DNA from: Deltaproteobacteria bacterium
GTDB lineage: Bacteria; Desulfobacterota; Syntrophia; Syntrophales; UBA2210
DNA: 64,000 nt
Reading direction: 5' to 3'
NCBI GenBank assembly: GCA_019313905.1
Contig: JAFDAI010000005.1
Coordinates: forward strand, 2,997-66,996
Shown here: piece after piece, positions 29,176-42,728 of the stretch
Numbering within the stretch: the stretch's first letter is position 1
Layout of the letters: each line of letters opens with the position of its first letter
Program-made: the position numbers and the translations under genes
Notes under the pieces: generated by a model
The model's input: the letters and a program-made list of their open reading frames with translations, nothing else
What the model was told of the DNA's origin: nothing
Database searches by the model: none

Positions 29176-29562
29176 TCAGCCCCCTTTGACAGCCGATGTA
29201 ATGGTGCCGTTTGCGTCAACCGAATAGACCAATGTGCCGTTGGCAGGCGTAGAGGTCATTACAAGGCCGGCCATGGTGCCCGTGGTAACCGCTGTAGTCA
29301 CATTGGCACTTGCCTTGAAACCGTTAGTCTGCAGGAGAGCTAAAGTTACAGTCCCTGTTGGATTTTCCGCAAAGTATGCCTGTGCCGCCGTGTAGGCATT
29401 TTTTACATCCGAGTTTGCCTGTGCGTTGAAACCCTTTGCCCTGTACGCCGAAAACTGCGGGATGGCGATTGCCGCCAGGATACCAATAATCGCGATGACG
29501 ATCATCAGTTCAATCAGTGTAAAACCCTTTTGTCCTTTTCTTCCGTTTAATTTCATCAACAT
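29176..29562 (-). CDS. pilA: Type IVa major pilin, Geobacter/Syntrophus-like
   Basis: Basic leader ...KGQKG|FTLIELMIVIAIIGILAAIAIPQFSAYR; monocistronic with RBS, sigma54 site and terminator. Confidence 0.93.
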   Translation of the reverse strand: MLMKLNGRKGQKGFTLIELMIVIAIIGILAAIAIPQFSAYRAKGFNAQANSDVKNAYTAAQAYFAENPTGTVTLALLQTNGFKASANVTTAVTTGTMAGLVMTSTPANGTLVYSVDANGTITSAVKGG

Positions 29563-29635: not shown

Positions 29636-29651
29636 TGCAACGAGTATGCCA
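29636..29651 (-). promoter_or_regulatory. Sigma54 (-24/-12) promoter of pilA
   Basis: Minus strand TGGCATACTCGTTGCA, GG-N10-GC spacing, 74 nt upstream of the ATG. Confidence 0.8.
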
Positions 29652-29908
29652 GATTGATTTTTACAGCATAAACCTGTTCCAATGTTTGCACAACCTATTG
29701 ATATCACGACAGACTATTCAGCAGAAATTTTTCCTCACCTTGACGCTTCCATATCCGCGCTGTAATAGAAAACGGTGATTTTCACCTTTTATGTGTGATT
29801 TTCAGGGAGAGGCCGGTCAAGGGCTGGACGAGTACATGTGCCCCCTCTGCGGGACACAGAGACCCCACGCTACATAAGTGGATTTAACTTTTCAACAAGT
29901 TACCAGCA

Positions 29909-31519
29909 TCAAAAATAGATTGCAGGCCTTAACAGCAGGGGGGCTCCGATGTTGCCCAGATCTATGATGAAATGGCACACTACGCATGGAACAATGCTTT
30001 CATTTTTCTCCTTAATCAACCCCAGAAGCATCCCGTACAAAAAGGCAAACGAGGCAAACTGCAGGCCGCCTATAAAATAATGTGGAAGGGCATAGACCGC
30101 GCTTTGTATGACATTAACAAAAAGTGTCGACCTGACGAATTTCCTGAGGAGTTCAAAAAGAGTAAGCCTGTAGAAAATTTCCTCGCTGAACGCGTTCAGC
30201 AGGCTGAGAATGATAACGGGCAACCAGACGGCCGTCCTTGAACTATCCACGGGATTTCTCATGAGCAGATACATTGAATACCAGGAGCTGATGATAATTC
30301 CGACAAAAAATACATTTGAAAATTTTTTCCAGGCAAACTGTTTCACAAATGGAATCCTTGCCCATTTGAGCCACAAAAGGGACAACCATGCCAGGATAAA
30401 CAGCGGCAGGTAAGTCATTATACTGGCATACACCGTGGCCAATCTGGCGGAACCGGTAAATGGCCACCTGACATAACCGCGGCTGACCAGATACAAAACA
30501 GCACCCATGAAAACAAACATGCAAACCAGATATGAAACCAGTGGAAAATACCGGTTCATCCGCGATCTCAGCAATAAATTACGGGGCTTATGCTCCGTTT
30601 TGATTCCAGATGGCAACGGGCCTAAAAGGACTTCCGAAGAAGGCGCCAAATATCGCGGGTTTTTTTGTGTGAGCAGCAGGATAAGAGTGCCCGTCATTAT
30701 AAAAATGAGCATGATGAGCTGAGGCTGGGTGAGACCGAATGCCTCTATCCTGTTCGTTCTGATAAATTCCATAAGGAACCTGACAGTACCATACAGAACC
30801 AGGTATCCCCCTACTACCCCACCCTTATTTCGTATAAGACCAAAGGGCCACGCGAGCCACTCGCGAATCCGTATGAAAAGGCCTGCCTGATCAGACAAGA
30901 CCCCGGATGCCACTTTTTGAACAACCCCACCTATGTAAATTCGGTTGTAAATCCGGCTTAAAATAAAAAATATGGTCAGATTGGCCAGGATTGCGTAAAG
31001 GGGGACAGGATTTGTAAAGGAGAAGTGGCTGCCAAAGACAGTGAAGCTGAGGGGTTTTCCCCAGCAGCAGCCAGCGGATAAACATCCCAGCCTACCGATC
31101 GCGTGCGCCAGGGGCACGTGCATAAAAGCCATGTCAACGACGCGCATCTCAGCAAACCGGAAAAGAACTGTTAGAAGGAAAAAAAAGGCCACAGGCAGAA
31201 TCAGACTGGCGTGGAAGGTGTGAAGGGTACCGGAGGTAATTTGGGTGTAAAACAGTTCCAGGCTCCAGCTTTTCAAAGGATAGTGCAAAATGCCCCCCGC
31301 CCTGCTGCTTATATAACCGAGGGGGAAAAAGAAGAGGGCCATCATAAGGACGAAAGAGGTAACCTTTCGCTTCGGATAGCCCGCCTGCAACATCCTTCTG
31401 TAAAAGAAAAAAGAAGCGGTAAAGATGCCGAGCAGGATAAAAAAATAGTAAACCGCGTTTACGATCGAGAGGACCTGGTGATAATCAAAAAGATACCGCT
31501 GAAGGACAAACTTGAGCAC
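29909..31519 (-). CDS. Fusion of an Lgt-like diacylglyceryl transferase domain and a CPBP (type II CAAX/Abi) intramembrane protease
   Basis: N-half: TFHAS, IGRLGCLSAGCCWG, YGTVRFLMEFIR; C-half: SEEIFYR, YALPH, CHFIID. Confidence 0.8.
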   Translation of the reverse strand: MLKFVLQRYLFDYHQVLSIVNAVYYFFILLGIFTASFFFYRRMLQAGYPKRKVTSFVLMMALFFFPLGYISSRAGGILHYPLKSWSLELFYTQITSGTLHTFHASLILPVAFFFLLTVLFRFAEMRVVDMAFMHVPLAHAIGRLGCLSAGCCWGKPLSFTVFGSHFSFTNPVPLYAILANLTIFFILSRIYNRIYIGGVVQKVASGVLSDQAGLFIRIREWLAWPFGLIRNKGGVVGGYLVLYGTVRFLMEFIRTNRIEAFGLTQPQLIMLIFIMTGTLILLLTQKNPRYLAPSSEVLLGPLPSGIKTEHKPRNLLLRSRMNRYFPLVSYLVCMFVFMGAVLYLVSRGYVRWPFTGSARLATVYASIMTYLPLFILAWLSLLWLKWARIPFVKQFAWKKFSNVFFVGIIISSWYSMYLLMRNPVDSSRTAVWLPVIILSLLNAFSEEIFYRLTLFELLRKFVRSTLFVNVIQSAVYALPHYFIGGLQFASFAFLYGMLLGLIKEKNESIVPCVVCHFIIDLGNIGAPLLLRPAIYF

Positions 31520-31697
31520 ACAAAGACCTCTTTAGGAATCAAGAATAAATAAGTTATACAGATTGCGCCGTAATTCTGTTTGTTTTCAAGGCGTGTTGAA
31601 GCGCACATAACGAGTTATGTAAGCTTTGGCACAACACAGAAAACAAGCAAAAGGACAAGCAGGGTGTATGAGTTATTTATGCTTGCTGACTTAGTAC

Positions 31698-31729
31698 AAA
31701 AAAGTCCCGGCCGGACCGGGACCCTTTTT
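31698..31729. terminator. Hairpin terminator after the 1078-aa pilin-like gene
   Basis: GTCCCGG / CCGGGAC stem flanked by A6 and T5 tracts. Confidence 0.6.
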
Positions 31730-31762: not shown

Positions 31763-34700
31763 CTACTGGGCCATTATTCCCGGAAATGCCACCGCACCCC
31801 CTACTCCCTGAATAAATCTCCAGGCAAAGTCGTCAAAATAGACGGTTTCTCTGTCATCAACCTGAATATCGGCATTTGCGTTGATACCGAGGGTGTGCGC
31901 ACCGAACTCCGGGATGTCCTGTGTGTTGAAATTATAGTCTTCAGTCGTGAATGTTGGCGAATATACTATCGTCGGGTTACCACCACCGTCATAGCCGATT
32001 TCCACCAGCTTGTGAGTAACCGCTCCACACCCGAGGATGGAGTGAGTGATCGTTTTACTGGTATAGGCCTTCTTTTTATCGGCAAGTCCTCTTCCCCAGA
32101 TGACCTGGGTGAAATAATCACCTTGATCGGGCCACTTGATAATGCCCCTGTCCAACTTCTTTCTGTTCAGATCGGTCGAAGATGCGTTACCGAAAGATGT
32201 ACCGACATCGTTGTCGGGACTTGCGAAAAAGGCGGTCAGGGCATTCACTCTTTGCTCGGGGTTATCAGGATTACAATCGGACACCATCTCGTAGATGTTC
32301 ACCATAATGGTAATCCATTCCCTGGGATATATTCGATAGTTGTAAATCGCCTTGTCCGTCTGATTGGTGGTGGCGGGAGGCCTGATGTAACCCACAGGGC
32401 CACTCGCCCCTCCGGCAACCGGTTTCCCGATCGGGTCCTCCTCGCTTACGGTAGCCGGGTCCCTCACCACTTCCGCCCCGGGAAGCCCGAGCACTGTAAT
32501 ATCCTCTACCTCATAAGTTTTGAAAAGGCCGTAGATATCGGTGATCTTCCAGACCAGTATCGGCGTTCCTCCGCTTCCTTCATAAATGACCTCGACGTTT
32601 TGGGTCCCGTCCCAAACAGTTTCATAGTACACATATACCTCTTCGTGGCCCACCAGGGGCGCGTATGCCATCCGTTCCCAGGGAGAATAGGAGCCACACC
32701 CTCCCGAATCAGTGGCATCTTTCTGCCACAGGACGAGGTAGGGAATTCCATCAAATGGAGGGGTATCGTCCCAGTGGCTTTCCTGGAAACCCTCGCAATT
32801 GACAGGATCCGCAACCGTTGTCGAACCATGATCGTCATAGATTGAGTCGGGGATATCGTCGTTTTCAGTGTAATAAGTTTCCTCGCCGCACCCAGACCCT
32901 TCGACATGCTCGGCCCTGCCCTGTATGCCTCTCATGATGGAGAGCCCGTAGTAGGAATATCCACTGTCGCCAGAAACCAGTTTAACCCTGAAGGACAACC
33001 CGGGCATGTAGTTTCCCGGATGGTTCAACGGATCAGTTTCTGAAAGATCGTCTTCCACGTCTGTAAAGCGGATCTTGGTCTGGAGATCATATCTGAGTTT
33101 CTGTTCCGATTCATTCCACAGGGTCTGCAATGGATTGGTACCGGAACCCCAGTCAACAGCGCCCAGGCTTTCCTCCATATAGACATCTTCAGGCACAAAA
33201 GCTGAGATGACCTGTTCGGTTCCGGTCACCTTTATGGCCATGTCTCCATCAATCTCTTCTCCGGCGTGTGACCCGATTATGGATCTGACATTGTCAGGGG
33301 TCATCTCACCCTCAATAGTTCTGTAAAGTTCCATCACGCTCAGGGGTTGAAAAAGGGTTATGGACCTCGAAACCGAATCGCTCCCCATATTGACCGTCCC
33401 TGTTGAGGTGAACCTGGCAAACTCATTAAATGTCATGACCGTCTGGTCAGTTAGCGAACGGGTAAAGGGGGGAACACCCGGGGGACAGTGCAAACCGGTG
33501 AGTCTCCCGTTGTCTGTATCCAGATAATCGTACTGCAAGAAAAGCTCGGTGCCTTCCGGAGTCACTATGGTAAAAGTCCCCTGTACCCTGGGCAAAATTG
33601 TCAGATTGCCACTTATAGCGAGGTTGCTTGTCGATTGCGCTCCACAACTCGCGGGAGAGATTGTCTGATCACCGTTTACCTTCGCAGCCGGGTATACGGG
33701 GGCATTATCCACGGGAGTGCCGCTGGCGCTCGTACTCAAAGTAAATGTAACGGAAGAGCCGTCTACCGAGTAACCGGAATATGGCACGGTTTCATATGTT
33801 GAACCGGATGCATCGGGCACCGCGACGCGCAGGTCTCCGCTTTCAGTACCGGCTCCCGCGACAAAGTTGGAGGGTAAATTTACGGTCCCGATACCGCCAG
33901 GAGGTGTGACAACAAGGCTGTTGACCGTGGAATTCACGCTTAAAGACTCCTCAAACCAGTTCAGCTCCATGCTGAGCCTGAATTGATCGTTGTCCACAGG
34001 GATGGATTGATTCAGGAATAAGGAATCCATAAGATCCTGTCGATTGATGTTGAAATTGGCATCCCTGTGTTCCACGACCCTGCTGACCGCGTAATTCAGC
34101 CCGGATTGTGCCAGGTACTGGGCCTTTTGCGCATATGCAAACCTGATCGTGCCCGTGCTGGAAGAGCTGAAAAGGGAGACCATGGCGGCCCCCAGAATAC
34201 CTATGATGACTATTGTCACGATCACCCCTATAAGTATGGAGCCTGATCGACCCACAGGCAGGTAAAGTTTCAGGCCTTCAAACGTTCCGTGCCTTTTGAG
34301 CAACATGAAGAGTATCCAGCCGAGAAGGATAATCATGATCAGACCGGCTTTGTGGCACCAGGTAGCAGTCATCGTTCCCCTATCCTCAAATCCGGCTATA
34401 GCCACAAAACATCCGGGGGTTGTGGTCCCGGTACTTCCCGTTGGAACTGAGTAGCCGCTAAAGCCCTGCGGGACATAGACGTTTGAGGGCAAAATCTCGT
34501 CCACAAAAGTCATGCTTGTTCCTTCCGATGCGCTCAAACTCATTGAGATGCCTATGCGGGAAAGATCGCTGAGCCTGTCCGAGATCGACCAGGCATTCCT
34601 TGAATAATCGAGGTAGGTCAAGGAAAATGCCGACACATTGTCAGCCAATGTAAAGAAATTGCTGTAACCGTCGTAATCGCTGCTTTTAACCTGAAGTGTG

Positions 34701-34999
34701 TTCCCCGACAATCGAAAGGTTTCATCTATAAGTCTTCCATCCGGGCTCCGTCTTTCAATGGTGATCGTGCCAGTCCCCGCCGCGCTGATGGAAGTGAGAT
34801 TCTGCAGAGACATCCTCAAACGGGTCATGGCCAGCTGATTTGTCTGCGTAAGCGCGGCTGAATCCTTGGCGAAAAGGAAGGCATTGGTCATCTGGACAAT
34901 TCCAAGGCCGGCTACGGCTGACATGACAGAAACGATAAGCAAGGACACGATTATCTCGATAAGAGTAAAACCTTTATTTTTTCTGAACGGCATTTGCAT
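31763..34999 (-). CDS. 1078-aa pilin-like protein: PilW/PulJ-like pilin, GCF-TM segment, PilX-like pilin and large acidic extracellular domain
   Basis: N-terminal KNKG|FTLIE; PGCFVAIAG at Cys197 followed by a TM helix and KRH; second prepilin-like site GRSG|SILIGVIVTIVIIGILGAAM at Gly253 and AQKAQYLAQSGLNYA. Confidence 0.8.
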   Translation of the reverse strand: MQMPFRKNKGFTLIEIIVSLLIVSVMSAVAGLGIVQMTNAFLFAKDSAALTQTNQLAMTRLRMSLQNLTSISAAGTGTITIERRSPDGRLIDETFRLSGNTLQVKSSDYDGYSNFFTLADNVSAFSLTYLDYSRNAWSISDRLSDLSRIGISMSLSASEGTSMTFVDEILPSNVYVPQGFSGYSVPTGSTGTTTPGCFVAIAGFEDRGTMTATWCHKAGLIMIILLGWILFMLLKRHGTFEGLKLYLPVGRSGSILIGVIVTIVIIGILGAAMVSLFSSSSTGTIRFAYAQKAQYLAQSGLNYAVSRVVEHRDANFNINRQDLMDSLFLNQSIPVDNDQFRLSMELNWFEESLSVNSTVNSLVVTPPGGIGTVNLPSNFVAGAGTESGDLRVAVPDASGSTYETVPYSGYSVDGSSVTFTLSTSASGTPVDNAPVYPAAKVNGDQTISPASCGAQSTSNLAISGNLTILPRVQGTFTIVTPEGTELFLQYDYLDTDNGRLTGLHCPPGVPPFTRSLTDQTVMTFNEFARFTSTGTVNMGSDSVSRSITLFQPLSVMELYRTIEGEMTPDNVRSIIGSHAGEEIDGDMAIKVTGTEQVISAFVPEDVYMEESLGAVDWGSGTNPLQTLWNESEQKLRYDLQTKIRFTDVEDDLSETDPLNHPGNYMPGLSFRVKLVSGDSGYSYYGLSIMRGIQGRAEHVEGSGCGEETYYTENDDIPDSIYDDHGSTTVADPVNCEGFQESHWDDTPPFDGIPYLVLWQKDATDSGGCGSYSPWERMAYAPLVGHEEVYVYYETVWDGTQNVEVIYEGSGGTPILVWKITDIYGLFKTYEVEDITVLGLPGAEVVRDPATVSEEDPIGKPVAGGASGPVGYIRPPATTNQTDKAIYNYRIYPREWITIMVNIYEMVSDCNPDNPEQRVNALTAFFASPDNDVGTSFGNASSTDLNRKKLDRGIIKWPDQGDYFTQVIWGRGLADKKKAYTSKTITHSILGCGAVTHKLVEIGYDGGGNPTIVYSPTFTTEDYNFNTQDIPEFGAHTLGINANADIQVDDRETVYFDDFAWRFIQGVGGAVAFPGIMAQ

Positions 35000-35025: not shown

Positions 35026-35442
35026 CTATATTTCAATGCTTCCAAACAACAGTGCGTAGGTCAGACCGGATGACCCGGTTATAGTAACTTTTAAAAGGTC
35101 ACTGGAACTCCCCTCAACAGGAGTCCCGCCAGATCCGTAACCTGTTGCACCGGCTGTAACGGATATTCCTATTCCAGAGGCAGTGACATCGAAAAGTCCG
35201 CCGGTTATATTAGTTTGTAAGTCACTGATGCTGCCCAGTTCCCGGTATGCCCGCGAAATACTATCGGCCACCTGGTTCATGGCATGAACTTCCATGGTCT
35301 GAATCGCAGGCTGGGTGCTCCGGGTGAACACTCCACCCATCATTGAGACCAACATGGCCCCCAATATCGAGGTGATAATCAATGTCACGATTACTTCCAA
35401 CAAGGTAAAGCCTTCATGATTTCCCAATACTTCAGTTTTCAT
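35026..35442 (-). CDS. Minor pilin (PilV/PulI-like)
   Basis: HEG|FTLLEVIVTLIITSILG. Confidence 0.85.
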   Translation of the reverse strand: MKTEVLGNHEGFTLLEVIVTLIITSILGAMLVSMMGGVFTRSTQPAIQTMEVHAMNQVADSISRAYRELGSISDLQTNITGGLFDVTASGIGISVTAGATGYGSGGTPVEGSSSDLLKVTITGSSGLTYALLFGSIEI

Positions 35443-35963
35443 AATATAAATCCTGTATACGGAGTAATGTTGATAGCTCTTAACTCTAACCCTTCAGAGA
35501 CGTTTATGGGTGCGGCTGCTGTCAATCTCACGGTCGCACCGGCGTCCGTACAGGGAGACCCCCAATTTTCAAAGGAATATGTAAAGTCGGAAACCGAAAG
35601 ACCATATCCGGCAAGATCGACATCGAGATCATCCTCACCTGGCAGCTGTTTTTTTGTATTTATATTTCCACCAGTAAAGAGCCAGTACTTGTTCTGGAAA
35701 GAGTGAATCCCCCACACGTCATTTGAACTCATGCTCTTCATCTGGGCGTATCGCAGATGAGACTTCAGGATTTCCGTTCGTGCCACCAGTTCCGAATGAT
35801 GATCTGTAGCTCTCACCGCGACAAACGCGGAGACTATTCCAATCAAGACCAAAACAGCGATTACCTCTATCAAAGTAAATCCTGATTTATTTGTCCTTTT
35901 GCCTGGACCGGAACTATTTTTAATCATTGTTGCCCCTTTTCTGTTGAGGTCTTTAGCCGACAT
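35439..35963 (-). CDS. Minor pilin (FimT/GspH-like)
   Basis: NKSG|FTLIEVIAVLVLIG...LKSHLRYAQMKSM; start may be at 35927. Confidence 0.85.
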   Translation of the reverse strand: MSAKDLNRKGATMIKNSSGPGKRTNKSGFTLIEVIAVLVLIGIVSAFVAVRATDHHSELVARTEILKSHLRYAQMKSMSSNDVWGIHSFQNKYWLFTGGNINTKKQLPGEDDLDVDLAGYGLSVSDFTYSFENWGSPCTDAGATVRLTAAAPINVSEGLELRAINITPYTGFIL

Positions 35964-36543
35964 TACAGGAATATCTCTCCATCGTATAAGTGAGAAAACC
36001 TCCTATAATAATGCTGCCGATCGTGAGCGGCAGCAACGCAAAGGTCACAATTGGAATTCTCAAATCTATCTGAAGAATTACACTATTGATGATGATTACT
36101 CCTACATATAAAAATATGCCGAACTTGGCCGATCTGACCGATACCGGCCGACCTGAAACAAAGGATATGCCCAAAAGAGCAAAACCGATCGCGATTGCAA
36201 AAGAAAACTCCGGCTGATACAGTAACCAGATTGCCTGATAACTGGCACTGCTGATGGTTTCCAGGCTCCGCGAGAAAACGATTCCCACTACAAGATAAAA
36301 AAGGCTTACGAGGATAAAGTAGAAACCGCACTGGCTCTTCGTGATGCTTTCCGGAAATAACCTGAACCCTTTTAAATCGCGGGGCCGCACAAGAAAGTTA
36401 CGGATCCTGTTAACTGTTCCATATCGCACCGGACGCAGCCCGATCCGGGCCATAACCCGGTCGGCAAAATCATCGGGTGGCTGTACCGGAGACACCTCTT
36501 TTATCATATCCATGATGGCTTTGTTTTTGATTTTATCTCCCAT
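35953..36543 (-). CDS. Putative membrane anti-sigma factor (about 4 TM)
   Basis: PVQPPDDFADRVMARI then hydrophobic helices; directly downstream of the ECF sigma gene. Confidence 0.65.
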   Translation of the reverse strand: MGDKIKNKAIMDMIKEVSPVQPPDDFADRVMARIGLRPVRYGTVNRIRNFLVRPRDLKGFRLFPESITKSQCGFYFILVSLFYLVVGIVFSRSLETISSASYQAIWLLYQPEFSFAIAIGFALLGISFVSGRPVSVRSAKFGIFLYVGVIIINSVILQIDLRIPIVTFALLPLTIGSIIIGGFLTYTMERYSCNVG

Positions 36544-36782: not shown

Positions 36783-37355
36783 TTACAACCTTTTATCCGG
36801 CTCACCGGACTGTTCCTCCATCAATTCCCGCAGTTTTTCCAGCCCCCGGTACGCCCTCATCTTCGCGGCACTCAGAGAAAGCCCTGATATTTCGGCAACT
36901 TCTTCAAATGAAAGTTCCTGATAGAATCTCAGCACCACAGCCTCTTTCAGGTTATCCGAAAGCCTGTGCAGGCACATATTCAGATGACATACCCTCTGTT
37001 CGCGAATCAGAGAGTGCTCGGGGTTGGAAGGATTATCTCGCGAGAGAAGATCAGTATCCTCTGTAAAGTCACGCAAAAATACCTTTTTCCTCTTCTTCAA
37101 GTGATTCCGGACGAGATTCAATCCTATCGTATAGAGCCAGGTAAAAAACTTCTTTCCCTGATCGAAACGCCCGAGATTCTCAAACGCCTTTACAAATGTC
37201 TCCTGCGCGAGATCGCTCGCGTCCTCATAGGATCCCGTCATGCGGTAAGCAAGGTTAAATATCGGCGCCTTGTATGTATCCACCAGCAGGGCATAGGAAT
37301 GACGATCCCCCTCAAGGACGCATCTTATGATGTCAATCTCTTTTTTTTCTTCCAT
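36783..37355 (-). CDS. ECF RNA polymerase sigma factor
   Basis: DASDLAQETFVKA, FFTWLYTI (region 2); LSFEEVAEISGLSLSAAKMRAYRG (region 4). Confidence 0.92.
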   Translation of the reverse strand: MEEKKEIDIIRCVLEGDRHSYALLVDTYKAPIFNLAYRMTGSYEDASDLAQETFVKAFENLGRFDQGKKFFTWLYTIGLNLVRNHLKKRKKVFLRDFTEDTDLLSRDNPSNPEHSLIREQRVCHLNMCLHRLSDNLKEAVVLRFYQELSFEEVAEISGLSLSAAKMRAYRGLEKLRELMEEQSGEPDKRL

Positions 37356-39417: not shown

Positions 39418-40575
39418 GTGCTGTCTAAAAAGAATAACCTGCTTGTAACCACATCTACTTTCTGGAGATGGAAGGGTGATGTAATCCCCTCGTTTGTATA
39501 TGATCTAAGCAAACGTTTGGCAAAAGATTTTGATATTTGGGTGCTGGCTCCACATTCCAGGGGAGCGGCAATATCCGAACAATTGGACGGATTAAATATC
39601 TTCAGATACAAGTATTATTTTAACAAATATCAATACTTGGGTGAGAAAGCAATCCTTCCTAATTTAAGAAGAAATCCCTTTTTATGGCTACAGGTACCCT
39701 TTTTTCTTATTGCGCAATTACTTGCAATCAAAAAAATAGCGAAAAAACATAACATTTACCTTATACATGCTCATTGGATAATACCACAGGGGATCATAGC
39801 TGTTTTATATAAATTCTTCTTCAATAGAAATGTTAAGATAGTTGTTACAAGCCACGGAACTTTGAACAATATTGACCGCCTGACTGTTGTCAGTTCGGCT
39901 ATAAAAGATGAAGTTGTGTCTTTAGGAATAAACAGAAATCTGCCTATTGATGTCGTACCGATGGGTGTTGATTTCTCACTCTTCAGTCCGGAACATTTTA
40001 ACGAAAGCATAAAGAAAAAATATTCTATTAATGGCCCTTTTCTTCTTTTTGTAGGACGACTCTCTGAAAAAAAAGGCATTGAATATTTAATCAAGGCTAT
40101 GCCCTCCATTCTCCTTGATTTTCCGGAGACAAAGCTGTTGATAATCGGCGAAGGAGAAAAAGAGTTTGATCTCAAGTCTCTTTCAGAAAAATTAAACCTA
40201 ATGGATAAATCGGTTATTTTTGCGGGTGCAATATCAAATGAGAATCTTCCTCAATATTATGCTACAGCGGATATTTTTATTAATCCCTCCTATTCTGAAG
40301 GATTCGGCCTTGTTTTTGTTGAAGCTATTGGTAGTGGGACCTACACAATTGGTACGGATTTGCCTGCCATATCAGATATTATAAAAGAAGGGAAAACGGG
40401 GTTCATAGTAAAACAGAAAGATTCAGAACAGATTGCGGATAAGGTTAAATTCATTCTTTCAAACAAATCGAAACTCATAAATATAAAGCACAAGGCCAGG
40501 AAAATAATAATTAAGAAGTTTGATTGGAATATTATTTCTAAAATATATAAACAAATATTAGCGTGTGTTAAATGA
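39418..40575 (+). CDS. GT4 glycosyltransferase (apparent short in-frame deletion)
   Basis: HAHWIIPQG, FVGRLSEKKG, EGFGLVFVEA. Confidence 0.88.
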   Translation: MLSKKNNLLVTTSTFWRWKGDVIPSFVYDLSKRLAKDFDIWVLAPHSRGAAISEQLDGLNIFRYKYYFNKYQYLGEKAILPNLRRNPFLWLQVPFFLIAQLLAIKKIAKKHNIYLIHAHWIIPQGIIAVLYKFFFNRNVKIVVTSHGTLNNIDRLTVVSSAIKDEVVSLGINRNLPIDVVPMGVDFSLFSPEHFNESIKKKYSINGPFLLFVGRLSEKKGIEYLIKAMPSILLDFPETKLLIIGEGEKEFDLKSLSEKLNLMDKSVIFAGAISNENLPQYYATADIFINPSYSEGFGLVFVEAIGSGTYTIGTDLPAISDIIKEGKTGFIVKQKDSEQIADKVKFILSNKSKLINIKHKARKIIIKKFDWNIISKIYKQILACVK

Positions 40576-40842
40576 GTTGCAATAATGTTTTCCGCAGAAA
40601 GGGAGAGCGGGGTTGAAGTCGTATAGAAACAATTTTTTGATTGATCGCATAAAAAACCCCTTAAAGCGATTTTATTGTCATGAAATACAAGGTTTCTCTT
40701 GAGTTTTCCGTCAATGCAAAACAGCAAAGAAGATTATCACAGACAAATTTTACTAAAGTGTAACATCGAATGACAGCGAGTTTTCTGTGTGCTGATTTTA
40801 AAAAGGAAAAGCTGAAATCAATTTTTCGGATAAGGTGGTAAT

Positions 40843-41724
40843 ATGAAAATAGAATATCAACTGATTAAAGATGGATTAATGATTATGAAAAGGTTTGGAA
40901 TACGACATGCCATACGAAGAACAAAAGACTTAATTCTAGTTAAAAAAGAAGAGAAAAGAAGGGCTAAGCTATATAATAAGATTAAGCCTGAGGGAACAAT
41001 AATAAGAGAAATTATCGGCAGTAAGATGAAGCTGGATATGAGTGACCAGGGAATACATAGGGATTTGTTTCTAGATGGCATACGGGAACCGGTTGCAACA
41101 AAACATTTAATGGGTGTTCTGACAAAAAACGATGTGGTGTTGGATATAGGAGCAAATATAGGCTATTACACCCTCCTGGAAGCCAAACTATGTAAGAAGG
41201 TTTATGCCGTTGAACCAGTCCTAAGTAATGTGGTTGTTCTCAAAGACAACATAAAGTTAAATCATTATAACAATGTGGAAGTTTCTAGTTTGGCCTTTGG
41301 TAAAGCCACAGGGATAGAAAAGATGTACTTGTCGCCAAAGAGTAATTGGCATAGCTTTTACCCGATAAAAAATATGGTTGGAGAAGCGAAAATCAACGTT
41401 GACACCGTTGATAATTTTCTTAAAGACAGAGAAGATCCAACAATCGTAAGGATGGACGTTGAAGGATACGAATTGAACATATTGTATGGCATGACAGAGA
41501 CTTTAAAAAAGATAGATAGATTATTCATGGAAATCCACGCTGATATAATGAGTCTGGAAGATACGAAAAGATTGATTGAGATATTAAACAGTGAAGGTTT
41601 CTTCCCGGAACTGATTATAAAATATGACAGACCAGGTCTAAGCAGGATCTTGCCTGACGATTATATTGGCAAAATTTATAAGGGAGATAAAGGTGGATAC
41701 GAGGTTTTTTTCAGAAAAAAATAA
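40843..41724 (+). CDS. FkbM family methyltransferase
   Basis: VLDIGANIGYYT, YAVEP, RMDVEGYE. Confidence 0.9.
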   Translation: MKIEYQLIKDGLMIMKRFGIRHAIRRTKDLILVKKEEKRRAKLYNKIKPEGTIIREIIGSKMKLDMSDQGIHRDLFLDGIREPVATKHLMGVLTKNDVVLDIGANIGYYTLLEAKLCKKVYAVEPVLSNVVVLKDNIKLNHYNNVEVSSLAFGKATGIEKMYLSPKSNWHSFYPIKNMVGEAKINVDTVDNFLKDREDPTIVRMDVEGYELNILYGMTETLKKIDRLFMEIHADIMSLEDTKRLIEILNSEGFFPELIIKYDRPGLSRILPDDYIGKIYKGDKGGYEVFFRKK

Positions 41725-41732
41725 ATAGTCGT

Positions 41733-42728
41733 TTGAAATTCAACCCCCTATGCCATTCCAATCTATATAAGAAAGTTGATATGAGAAAAAAACGCATATG
41801 GCCTCTTATCACAATAGTATCTATTGCGGCCTTAATAATAATATATATCTATCATCACCCTTATTCCCTTGAACCTTTTAAAGATGTTAGTCCCTCTATC
41901 CTCATTTGTTTAATAATCAGCAGAATTTTGTTCCAAATAACAAACGGGCTTATATTGCGAGAAGTTGCATCCAAGTTTAATATAGTACTGACTATAAAGG
42001 AATGGTTTGGTCTTCCCTTTGTTACAGCCATGGGGAATTATATAACGCCCTTTTCCGGTGGTATGATTGCCCGGGCATCATATCTGAAGTACCGCCATAA
42101 TTTCTCTTATGCGCAGTTTGTATCGGTTCTTGGAGCAAGCTTCCTGATATTCTTCTGGATAGCCGGCATGACAGGCATAATTACTCTTATATTGTCTCTT
42201 GAGAGGTCAGCGATCTACTGGCAGTTAATTTTCTTTTTTGGAGCGGTTGTCCTAAGCATTTCAATGGTCGCCATTCTCCCTTCTGTAAAGCTGCCCGGCA
42301 ATAACAGACTGTCAACACTTATAAATAACTCACTTGAAGGATGGGATTTCATAAAAAGCGACCTGTTTCTTTTAACCAAACTCGCCCTGTATACACTTGC
42401 AAACATTTTTATAAACGGGATCTCCTTCTGGCTGGCATTTGTTGCACTGTATGGAACTTCTTTATCAGTTGGAAAGGCTTTTCTAATCAGCCTGTTTTCG
42501 ACCTTTTCCATTCTTGTGAGAATAACGCCTGGCAATTTAGGGGTTTTTGAGAGTATTGTCAGCCTTAGCTCTGGAATTTTAGGGGTTGGCGTTAGCCCTG
42601 GTTTAATGGTATCCCTGCTCATCAGGGCGGCTTCCATGATTCCTATCTTCACCCTGGGCCCGATCTTCAGTTTTGTGCTTACACGTGAATTAGCGGGTAA
42701 TAAAAGAAGAAATGACGATGATAACTAA
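41733..42728 (+). CDS. Flippase-like membrane protein (lysylphosphatidylglycerol synthase TM / YbhN family)
   Basis: Multi-TM; NYITPFSGG..ARASYLK; ITPGNLGVFE; start possibly MRKKRIW at 41781. Confidence 0.8.
   Translation: MKFNPLCHSNLYKKVDMRKKRIWPLITIVSIAALIIIYIYHHPYSLEPFKDVSPSILICLIISRILFQITNGLILREVASKFNIVLTIKEWFGLPFVTAMGNYITPFSGGMIARASYLKYRHNFSYAQFVSVLGASFLIFFWIAGMTGIITLILSLERSAIYWQLIFFFGAVVLSISMVAILPSVKLPGNNRLSTLINNSLEGWDFIKSDLFLLTKLALYTLANIFINGISFWLAFVALYGTSLSVGKAFLISLFSTFSILVRITPGNLGVFESIVSLSSGILGVGVSPGLMVSLLIRAASMIPIFTLGPIFSFVLTRELAGNKRRNDDDN

Follow-up and report, generated by a model that had tools for sequence, protein, structure and literature searches.

An Lgt-like lipid transferase fused to a CPBP protease in a Syntrophales genome, with a neighbouring pilin as its candidate client

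Among CPBP-family enzymes, Rce1 cleaves its substrates only once the cysteine carries a lipid, and MrtX cleaves the MYXO-CTERM signal in a Cys-dependent manner (PMC11980579). For MYXO-CTERM, the same 2025 paper proposes a two-step model of lipidation followed by cleavage and discusses an internal MYXO-CTERM at a gene-fusion seam; there, the lipidating enzyme is unidentified, is drawn as 'Lgt-like', and has Lgt as its leading candidate (PMC11980579). LnsB of Staphylococcus aureus, a remote CPBP relative without the CPBP catalytic motifs, works with an NlpC/P60 enzyme and is needed for lipoprotein N-acylation (PMC7387801). Here we describe a gene in a 64,000-nucleotide stretch of DNA (hereafter the window) from a Syntrophales genome (Deltaproteobacteria bacterium, assembly GCA_019313905.1, contig JAFDAI010000005.1), for which a preliminary description, made from the letters without database searches, had noted a single polypeptide joining an Lgt-like half to a CPBP-type half. 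The gene is genuine, and sequence and model evidence both indicate that it encodes a bifunctional inner-membrane enzyme, in which an accessory Lgt paralogue is joined to a CPBP protease through a linker predicted to be cytoplasmic. It may act by lipidating a Cys and then cutting beside it, and the client at this locus may be the seam of a neighbouring giant pilin.

The gene is one open reading frame (ORF) of 536 codons plus stop, opening with GTG, and the N-terminus MLKF of its relatives falls at the same place as this start in the family alignment. Both halves exceed their Pfam cut-offs: LGT at 76.1 bits (cut-off 24.9), with the best stretch at residues 23–192 and a second stretch besides, and the Rce1-like/CPBP domain (PF02517) at 55.7 bits (cut-off 22.4) over residues 431–521. 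Every motif listed in the preliminary description was present, and each was invariant in all 22 homologues (34–88% identity) of our family alignment, A1. Searching the PDB with the full-length sequence gave no match at E <= 1, and a fold search was used instead. The AlphaFold2 model built on A1 had a mean predicted local distance difference test (pLDDT) score of 78.5 and a predicted template modelling score (pTM) of 0.64, with low confidence confined to residues 198–225, 294–318 and the last four. By Foldseek it matched Escherichia coli Lgt (5azb; probability 1.00, E 1.5e-4, template modelling score on the target 0.56) and Rce1 (4cad; probability 0.97, template modelling score 0.49). One chain, two Pfam domains and two matching folds thus bear out the architecture that had been read from the sequence.

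The notion that two genes were joined by misassembly or a sequencing error, which would have made the fusion an artefact, has a probability close to nil. Nothing was found in its support (split forms do exist, but in another branch), and independent assemblies refute it: a single-ORF fusion at 72–88% identity is present in four of 13 other genomes of the genus, including the one-contig genome G016 (G, C and L numbers are our own identifiers of genomes, contigs and loci), as well as in metagenome contigs and distant lineages. Nor is the fusion the only lgt of its genome, a circumstance that would have told against a special role. The assembly (2.45 Mb in 171 contigs, 98.8% complete) carries a separate lgt (G000:C73:19343-20107; 240.6 Pfam bits over 239 of 240 profile positions) and also encodes lspA and a prepilin peptidase, so the fusion is a paralogue spare to the ordinary lipoprotein pathway. 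Among public sequencing runs, none of RNA was listed and the shares in DNA runs were small, at most 0.11; no conclusion is drawn from these, on habitat included.

This is a small family of patchy distribution. Searched with its profile, 1.84 billion representatives yielded 78 proteins at E <= 1e-30, of which 19 span both halves; the rest are Lgt-like-only or CPBP-only with family-specific scores, and some of them may be fragments from short contigs. The fusion occurred in none of 27 searched genomes from other genera of the family and order. The named family members come from metagenome-assembled genomes of Desulfobacterales type and of Spirochaetes. Both halves lie in one ORF at 26 loci (25 by motif tags, plus L009), some of these rows being duplicates (L101/L106, L120/L121, L011/L123). 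At six further loci (L014, L015, L017, L108, L113, L114) the halves are adjacent separate genes, whose stop and start codons overlap or are closely spaced, and L008, from the same branch as the split forms, carries a fused gene. Because the two halves are fused in some lineages and split but adjacent in others, they very likely work together, and on balance we think it probable that they do so on the Cys of a membrane-anchored protein.

The Lgt-like half keeps most of what is known to matter in E. coli Lgt. Mutants of the latter at H103, R143, Y235, R239, E243 and R246 fail complementation (Y235T is partly active), H103 has been proposed as a peptide-binding site, and N146 and E151 recognise the phosphatidylglycerol head group, with E151 binding its glycerol and E151A and E151Q inactive (PMC4728403). 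The equivalents of E. coli H103, R143, G154, P197, Y235, R239, E243 and R246 are invariant in all 22 family sequences. In the numbering of the window protein, the key residues of this domain are H103 (the His of TFHAS), R143 (the Arg of IGRLGC), C146, C151, C152, G154, P171/P173/Y175, Y239, Y243, and R247, E251 and R254 (the RFxxEFxR motif). What sets the paralogue apart from E. coli Lgt, with which it shares the Pfam LGT domain, the seven-helix fold and the residue set from H103 through R246, is a handful of replacements in addition to the fused protease. The HGGL motif reads HASL throughout the family, and residues 170–176 read NPVPLYA where the canonical Lgt of the same genome has HPSQLYE. 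A signature GRxxCxxxGCCWG, unremarked in the preliminary description, places three invariant Cys where E. coli has N146, E151 and L152. In the window clade only, an insert of about 28 residues (198–225, modelled with low confidence) follows helix 5. The fusion protein scores 40.5 bits on the NCBIfam Lgt equivalog NF000778, below the cut-off of 334.

We considered the three Cys as the mark of a new lipid donor, and dropped this as a strong claim. Scanning genome contigs turned up this Cys signature in hundreds of matches to Lgt alone, for the most part in Acidobacteriota, and in four of five Acidobacteriota genomes (G048-G052; L156-L160) the only LGT match (190–205 bits) bears it (GRLGCFAAGCCWG). 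Since the sole Lgt of these four genomes carries the signature, it is a natural housekeeping variant. The Acidobacteriota proteins keep HGG, and in sequence terms HASL and NPVPLYA alone set the fusion family apart from other Cys-signature Lgts.

The CPBP half has the complete motif set: EExxxR (E446, E447, R451), YxxxH (Y476, H480) and HxxxD (H516, D520), invariant in 22 of 22 sequences in A1 and in 11 of 11 in a second alignment, together with N442, Q472 and C515. Topology was taken from the helices of the model, with the N-terminus of the Lgt-like domain set outside the membrane after the Lgt structure paper, and Lys and Arg were counted in each loop. The loops thereby assigned to the inside, the linker among them, hold most of the Lys and Arg. 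On these model helices and the positive-inside rule, H103, R143 and H480 are predicted to be close to where their helices end on the periplasmic side, and E446/E447 and H516/D520 to range from mid-helix to the periplasmic half. Judged by conserved residues and predicted structure, both catalytic domains look active. The CPBP half thus shares with the type II CAAX protease Rce1 the Rce1-like domain, the EExxxR, (F/Y)xxxH and HxxxD motifs and the fold, but a periplasm-facing active site is predicted for it, and its candidate transferase is an Lgt-family domain on the same chain, whereas that of Rce1 is a separate soluble prenyltransferase. It resembles LnsAB of S. aureus in that a CPBP-fold protein is tied to the lipid modification of lipoproteins; here, however, all catalytic motifs are retained alongside an Lgt-like partner.

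Membership among the myxosortases was rejected. The best NCBIfam scores of the CPBP half are to myxosortase models and lie far under their cut-offs (Mrt_core 24.4 bits against 100, MrtS 36.8 against 130, MrtJ 31.1 against 75, MrtP 26.5 against 250), and two unrelated stand-alone CPBPs used as a control (L004, L093) score equally well or better on the same models (39.2 and 49.2 bits). The link to myxosortases of MYXO-CTERM and JDVT-CTERM signals that had been drawn in the preliminary description therefore survives as an analogy only. What the window's enzyme and its candidate client share with the myxosortases (MrtX, MrtJ, MrtS, MrtP, MrtA) is a CPBP protease and a signal consisting of a Cys motif, a transmembrane (TM) helix and a basic tail; the candidate signal here resembles a CFI box and is internal to a pilin instead of C-terminal. 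In a term search of the myxosortase discovery preprint, 'Lgt', 'diacylglycer-', 'fused' and 'fusion' were not found. The preliminary description had known of no characterised example of the fusion, and within the one literature collection searched we likewise found no description of an Lgt-CPBP fusion, no paper on the CFI-box domain and no processing enzyme on record for it. The automatic protein name in one database source lists both domains. As far as searched, then, the architecture is visible in databases but apparently unstudied.

The candidate client is the product of the gene directly upstream, a giant minor pilin. It consists of a prepilin N-terminus, a pilin module of about 190 residues, a junction, a second pilin-like TM helix (GRSGSILIG...) beginning near residue 250, and a module of about 800 residues. 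At the junction stands the dipeptide Cys-Phe, invariant across the four giant pilins aligned and found also in L107. The aligned place of the giant pilin in L016 scores 55.5 bits on CFI_box_CTERM (NF041770; cut-off 40), and a comparable junction in G043 scores 80.3; in the window, the leading Cys-Phe, TM helix and basic stretch of the junction are all retained, and a middle part of about 58 residues is missing. G008, G018, G046 and a second locus of G009 instead encode each module by a gene of its own; the two genes are neighbours, and the first stops immediately ahead of where the box would stand. The box thus marks a gene-fusion seam, and cleavage at the junction would restore the two-protein state. 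Within the order, the loci with one gene and an internal box (L151, L153, L154, L155, L152) and those with two genes and no box (L142, L144, L133) look like a natural series for probing whether the box serves as a linker that can be cleaved. No consistent lipobox-like small residue was seen by eye before the Cys (Gly, Ser, Phe, Ile, Tyr, Gln and Lys all occur there).

A giant pilin lies directly upstream of the enzyme in the window, in G016, in G014 (where L101 and L106 appear to be one sequence) and in L104, L107 and L016, and partial pilin ends stand upstream of it in G015 and G010. The L016 enzyme is only 38% identical to that of the window and falls outside the window clade in the tree, where it groups with two ceramidase-linked members (supports 84–89) above weak deep nodes. 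On such branches, the link with pilins may have arisen either once or twice.

We also screened all 6019 ORFs of the window's genome for a Cys, TM helix and basic tail and for the CF motif. The tail scan gave nine candidates, of which only one, on C136, is CFI-like, and the motif gave five matches, of which the giant pilin and the C136 protein are convincing and one on C124 is an apparent stub. The C136 protein (G000:C136:25405-27051; L178, L212) is a secreted, BNR-like protein of 548 residues that ends in an Asp run, Cys-Cys-Phe-Ile-Ala-Thr-Ala, a TM helix and RGKK; no orthologue was found in the 13 other genomes of the genus. The C124 gene (G000:C124:10955-12586) encodes a secreted 543-residue protein, papain-like by eye, that ends with a Gly run and CFISILRW at the stop codon and resembles the stub of a lost CFI tail. 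Across the same genome, nothing exceeds the NF041770 cut-off, the best score being 18.2 bits at a site other than the junction. A gene pair recurs in four genomes (G000:C165 L004, L088; L090, L091, L093), consisting of a multi-TM protein of about 490–500 residues and a stand-alone CPBP of about 215–225. The large protein of the pair has HEAT repeats by Pfam (in the copy of the window's genome) and a weak partial match, 18–30 bits, to the middle of the CFI-box profile.

Taken together, the enzyme may work as follows. Both halves would act in sequence on a Cys at the periplasmic end of a client's membrane helix: the Lgt-like half would place a lipid, probably diacylglyceryl, on the Cys thiol, after which the CPBP half would cleave the protein next to the Cys so modified, the donor, the order and the cleavage site being our suggestion. 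The most likely client would be the adjoining 1078-residue minor pilin, cut at its Cys197-Phe/TM/KRH junction, so that the first pilin module is left with a C-terminal lipid; the secreted 548-residue C136 protein, which bears the same kind of short signal, would be a second possible client. We put the probability of this reading, with the giant-pilin seam as the client at this locus, at roughly 0.45, since the link is one of gene position, confined to the pilin-linked lineages. Co-folding of the enzyme with pilin residues 176–250 scored 0.00 in two runs, with no controls folded, and is evidence neither way.

Several observations weigh against this reading. Within the family, HGGL has become HASL and the head-group residue E151 is a Cys. 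At the locus itself, a terminator-like hairpin parts the pilin gene from the enzyme gene, and the window junction is too short to score on NF041770 (no match at E <= 1). Further afield, giant pilins with an internal box, short in G009 and full in G043, G021, G032 and G045, occur in genomes where the family profile matches the Lgt part only (five of five), and the genes that adjoin these pilins are unrelated (on the short contig of G045, the cassette can be seen only in part). Several relatives in which no such enzyme was found likewise have full C-terminal CFI boxes: the pattern CF[IVM]ATA gave 38 matches in 41 related genomes, against four for a reversed control, and 30 of the matches, when read, comprised full C-terminal boxes at about 10 loci, one of them in the enzyme-bearing G014, and several spurious hits. 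Conversely, NF041770 exceeded its cut-off in only one of five enzyme-bearing genomes of other branches, the CF[IVM]ATA pattern gave a single, spurious match in these five, and a giant pilin was found in just one of them, as split genes elsewhere in the genome. Finally, other branches of the family have fixed neighbours of their own, as described below. Since boxes occur in genomes in which no such enzyme was found, and enzyme-bearing genomes of other branches lack boxes, the enzyme is not a general CFI-box processor; it is an add-on to some pilin cassettes. The idea of a lipidate-then-cleave enzyme for a non-canonical Cys, as put forward in the preliminary description, consequently stands in part. 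Intact catalytic sets, the fused or split pairing and a Cys-bearing candidate adjoining the gene are consistent with it, and in the pilin-linked lineages a CFI-like junction lies beside the enzyme; members from other lineages are without such a neighbour, and many related genomes in which no such enzyme was found encode CFI-box proteins.

Three other neighbourhoods recur. A secreted neutral/alkaline ceramidase gene lies directly upstream at six loci (L008, L014, L015, L017, L108, L114), with a gap of eight bases in L008, where the ceramidase scores 543 and 159 Pfam bits. Six loci of Spirochaetes type have upstream a protein combining major facilitator superfamily (MFS), spermidine synthase and tetratricopeptide repeat (TPR) regions, and DUF1189 and MORN proteins downstream. 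An Acyl_transf_3/HGSNAT membrane acyltransferase lies directly downstream at four to five loci, which were checked by Pfam in L115 and L116 and have look-alikes in L111, L124 and L118. One family member, P0051, has kept the CPBP motifs, lost the Lgt motifs and gained in front a periplasmic domain of about 400 residues, which is homologous (E 1e-20) to L117:2-1087, encoded two genes upstream of the enzyme there. This extra domain has no Pfam match and only a weak Atlas lead, to GH127/GH88-like barrels; a prenyltransferase-like reading of it was unsupported.

These neighbours bear on what else the enzyme might do. A ceramidase is an N-acyl amidase. It and a membrane acyltransferase could remodel an N-acyl anchor, and because both fit the remodelling of a lipid anchor, a second, specialised route for N-terminal lipoproteins stays alive as an alternative, though we judge it unlikely. 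By this account, the Lgt-like half lipidates the Cys of ordinary or odd lipoboxes in a few clients, the CPBP half serves as a signal peptidase or, as proposed for LnsB, as a partner that presents the substrate so that its anchor can be tailored, and the pilins are incidental. That LnsB is required for lipoprotein N-acylation (PMC7387801) is in keeping with it, as is the Cys-type signature in the only Lgt of four of the five Acidobacteriota genomes. LnsB, however, is without the CPBP catalytic motifs, every one of which is retained in the fusion family; lgt and lspA are already present in the genome; the ceramidase N-termini of L008, L015 and L017 show no lipobox Cys; and no lipobox client is linked to the gene at any locus examined. 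The ceramidase and acyltransferase neighbours, from two branches, would equally suit an enzyme of envelope lipids, whose Lgt-like half transfers diacylglyceryl, or a group akin to it, from one lipid to another or to an acceptor other than a protein, while the CPBP half is a scaffold or has another target. The changes at N146, E151, HGGL and HPxQLYE all fit such a role, and so does P0051, with its lost Lgt motifs and its gained periplasmic domain. Yet the proposed peptide-binding His, H103, is invariant, the intact protease catalytic set in every member argues for a peptide substrate, and to our knowledge, no search having been made, no member of the Lgt family acts on a non-protein acceptor; we hold this account to be distinctly improbable.

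The head of the cassette suggests a further, regulatory role, in which the CPBP half cleaves the anti-sigma-like membrane protein and so controls the sigma factor of the extracytoplasmic function (ECF) type. PrsW-type proteases control sigma factors by such anti-sigma cleavage, and the sigma and anti-sigma genes stand in the same cassette as the enzyme. The same pair, however, is present in G009, G043, G021 and G032, four genomes in none of which the enzyme was found, the enzyme occurs at many loci without sigma or anti-sigma genes, and the Lgt-like half would be left unexplained, which makes this role very unlikely.

If the coupled reading with the giant pilin as client holds, a fused two-module pilin gives rise to a minor pilin with a lipid tail and to a large protein associated with the pilus, Lgt-type chemistry acts on a signal of inverted orientation, and minor pilins can arise by the cutting of a fused precursor. 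In its most far-reaching form, the enzyme would be a self-contained 'lipo-sortase', the first natural wiring of Lgt to CPBP, lipidating and then cutting at a Cys that precedes rather than follows the membrane helix; it would split the fused pilin, and the Lgt family would supply the missing lipidating step. We regard that form as doubtful. The conserved fusion and its split versions nevertheless turn the 'Lgt-like' guess into an idea that can be tried at the bench, in a compact system of one gene and a neighbouring client whose single Cys is mutable. Should the pilin link be wrong, the family is still a module of two enzymes, as yet uncharacterised, in at least four fixed neighbourhoods.

The coordinates of the enzyme, its domains and the surrounding cassette are collected in Table 1. 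The cassette runs from the ECF sigma factor through the anti-sigma-like membrane protein, two minor pilins and the giant pilin to the enzyme, and then the major pilin, and four window proteins exceed the cut-off of the TIGR02532 prepilin N-terminal motif. No small conserved Cys peptide gene was found beside the enzyme, the 12 short ORFs there being unconserved in a four-locus alignment.

Table 1. Positions in the window of the fusion gene, its domains and the genes and elements of the pilin cassette.
Feature	Position	Strand	Evidence
Whole ORF: Lgt-like domain, linker and CPBP domain	29909..31519	-	ORF list, Pfam, alignment, AlphaFold2/Foldseek
Residues 1-290, seven-helix Lgt-like lipid transferase domain	30650..31519	-	Pfam LGT, invariant columns, comparison with own Lgt, 5azb match, helices
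Residues 291-312, linker flanked by Lys/Arg-rich stretches, predicted cytoplasmic	30584..30649	-	pLDDT < 50 for 294-318; Lys/Arg counts
Residues 313-536, CPBP (Rce1-like) glutamic intramembrane protease domain	29912..30583	-	Pfam Rce1-like, invariant columns, 4cad match
ECF-type sigma-70 factor, head of cassette	36783..37355	-	Profile scan
196-aa membrane protein, probably anti-sigma factor; always adjoins the sigma factor in the cassette	35953..36543	-	Weak profile match, neighbourhood
Minor pilin, 174 aa, GspH-like N-terminus	35439..35963	-	Profile scan, neighbourhood
Minor pilin, 138 aa	35026..35442	-	Profile scan, neighbourhood
1078-aa giant minor pilin, candidate client	31763..34999	-	Profile scan, alignment
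Junction of giant pilin, about residues 194-245: Cys197-Phe198 (codon 34409-34411), TM helix, KRH; short, CFI-box-like	34265..34420	-	Alignment
Terminator-like GC-rich hairpin and T run between giant pilin and enzyme genes	31703..31722	-	Sequence, L104 comparison
128-aa major pilin, PilA-like, no Cys	29176..29562	-	Profile scan, neighbourhood comparison

L104, too, has the hairpin that follows the stop codon of the giant pilin. Between the hairpin and the enzyme start, the window alone has about 155 extra bases (31520-31700), where L104 runs almost directly to the ribosome-binding site.

The major pilin is independent of the enzyme: it occurs in 10 of the 13 genus genomes, mostly without the enzyme, behind a gene read by eye as a PilR-like regulator. 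Because it has no Cys, it is an unlikely client. On its 5' side lies a sigma-54-type promoter-like site, TGGCAT-5 bases-TTGC, at 29637-29652, near-identical in four of four aligned loci with one position differing in L107, and a conserved inverted repeat, GGTGAAAATCACC, is found further upstream at 29774-29786. Elsewhere in the window, positions 40001-42000 have a G+C content of 0.344, against about 0.45–0.50 in the remainder, and the GC skew changes sign there.

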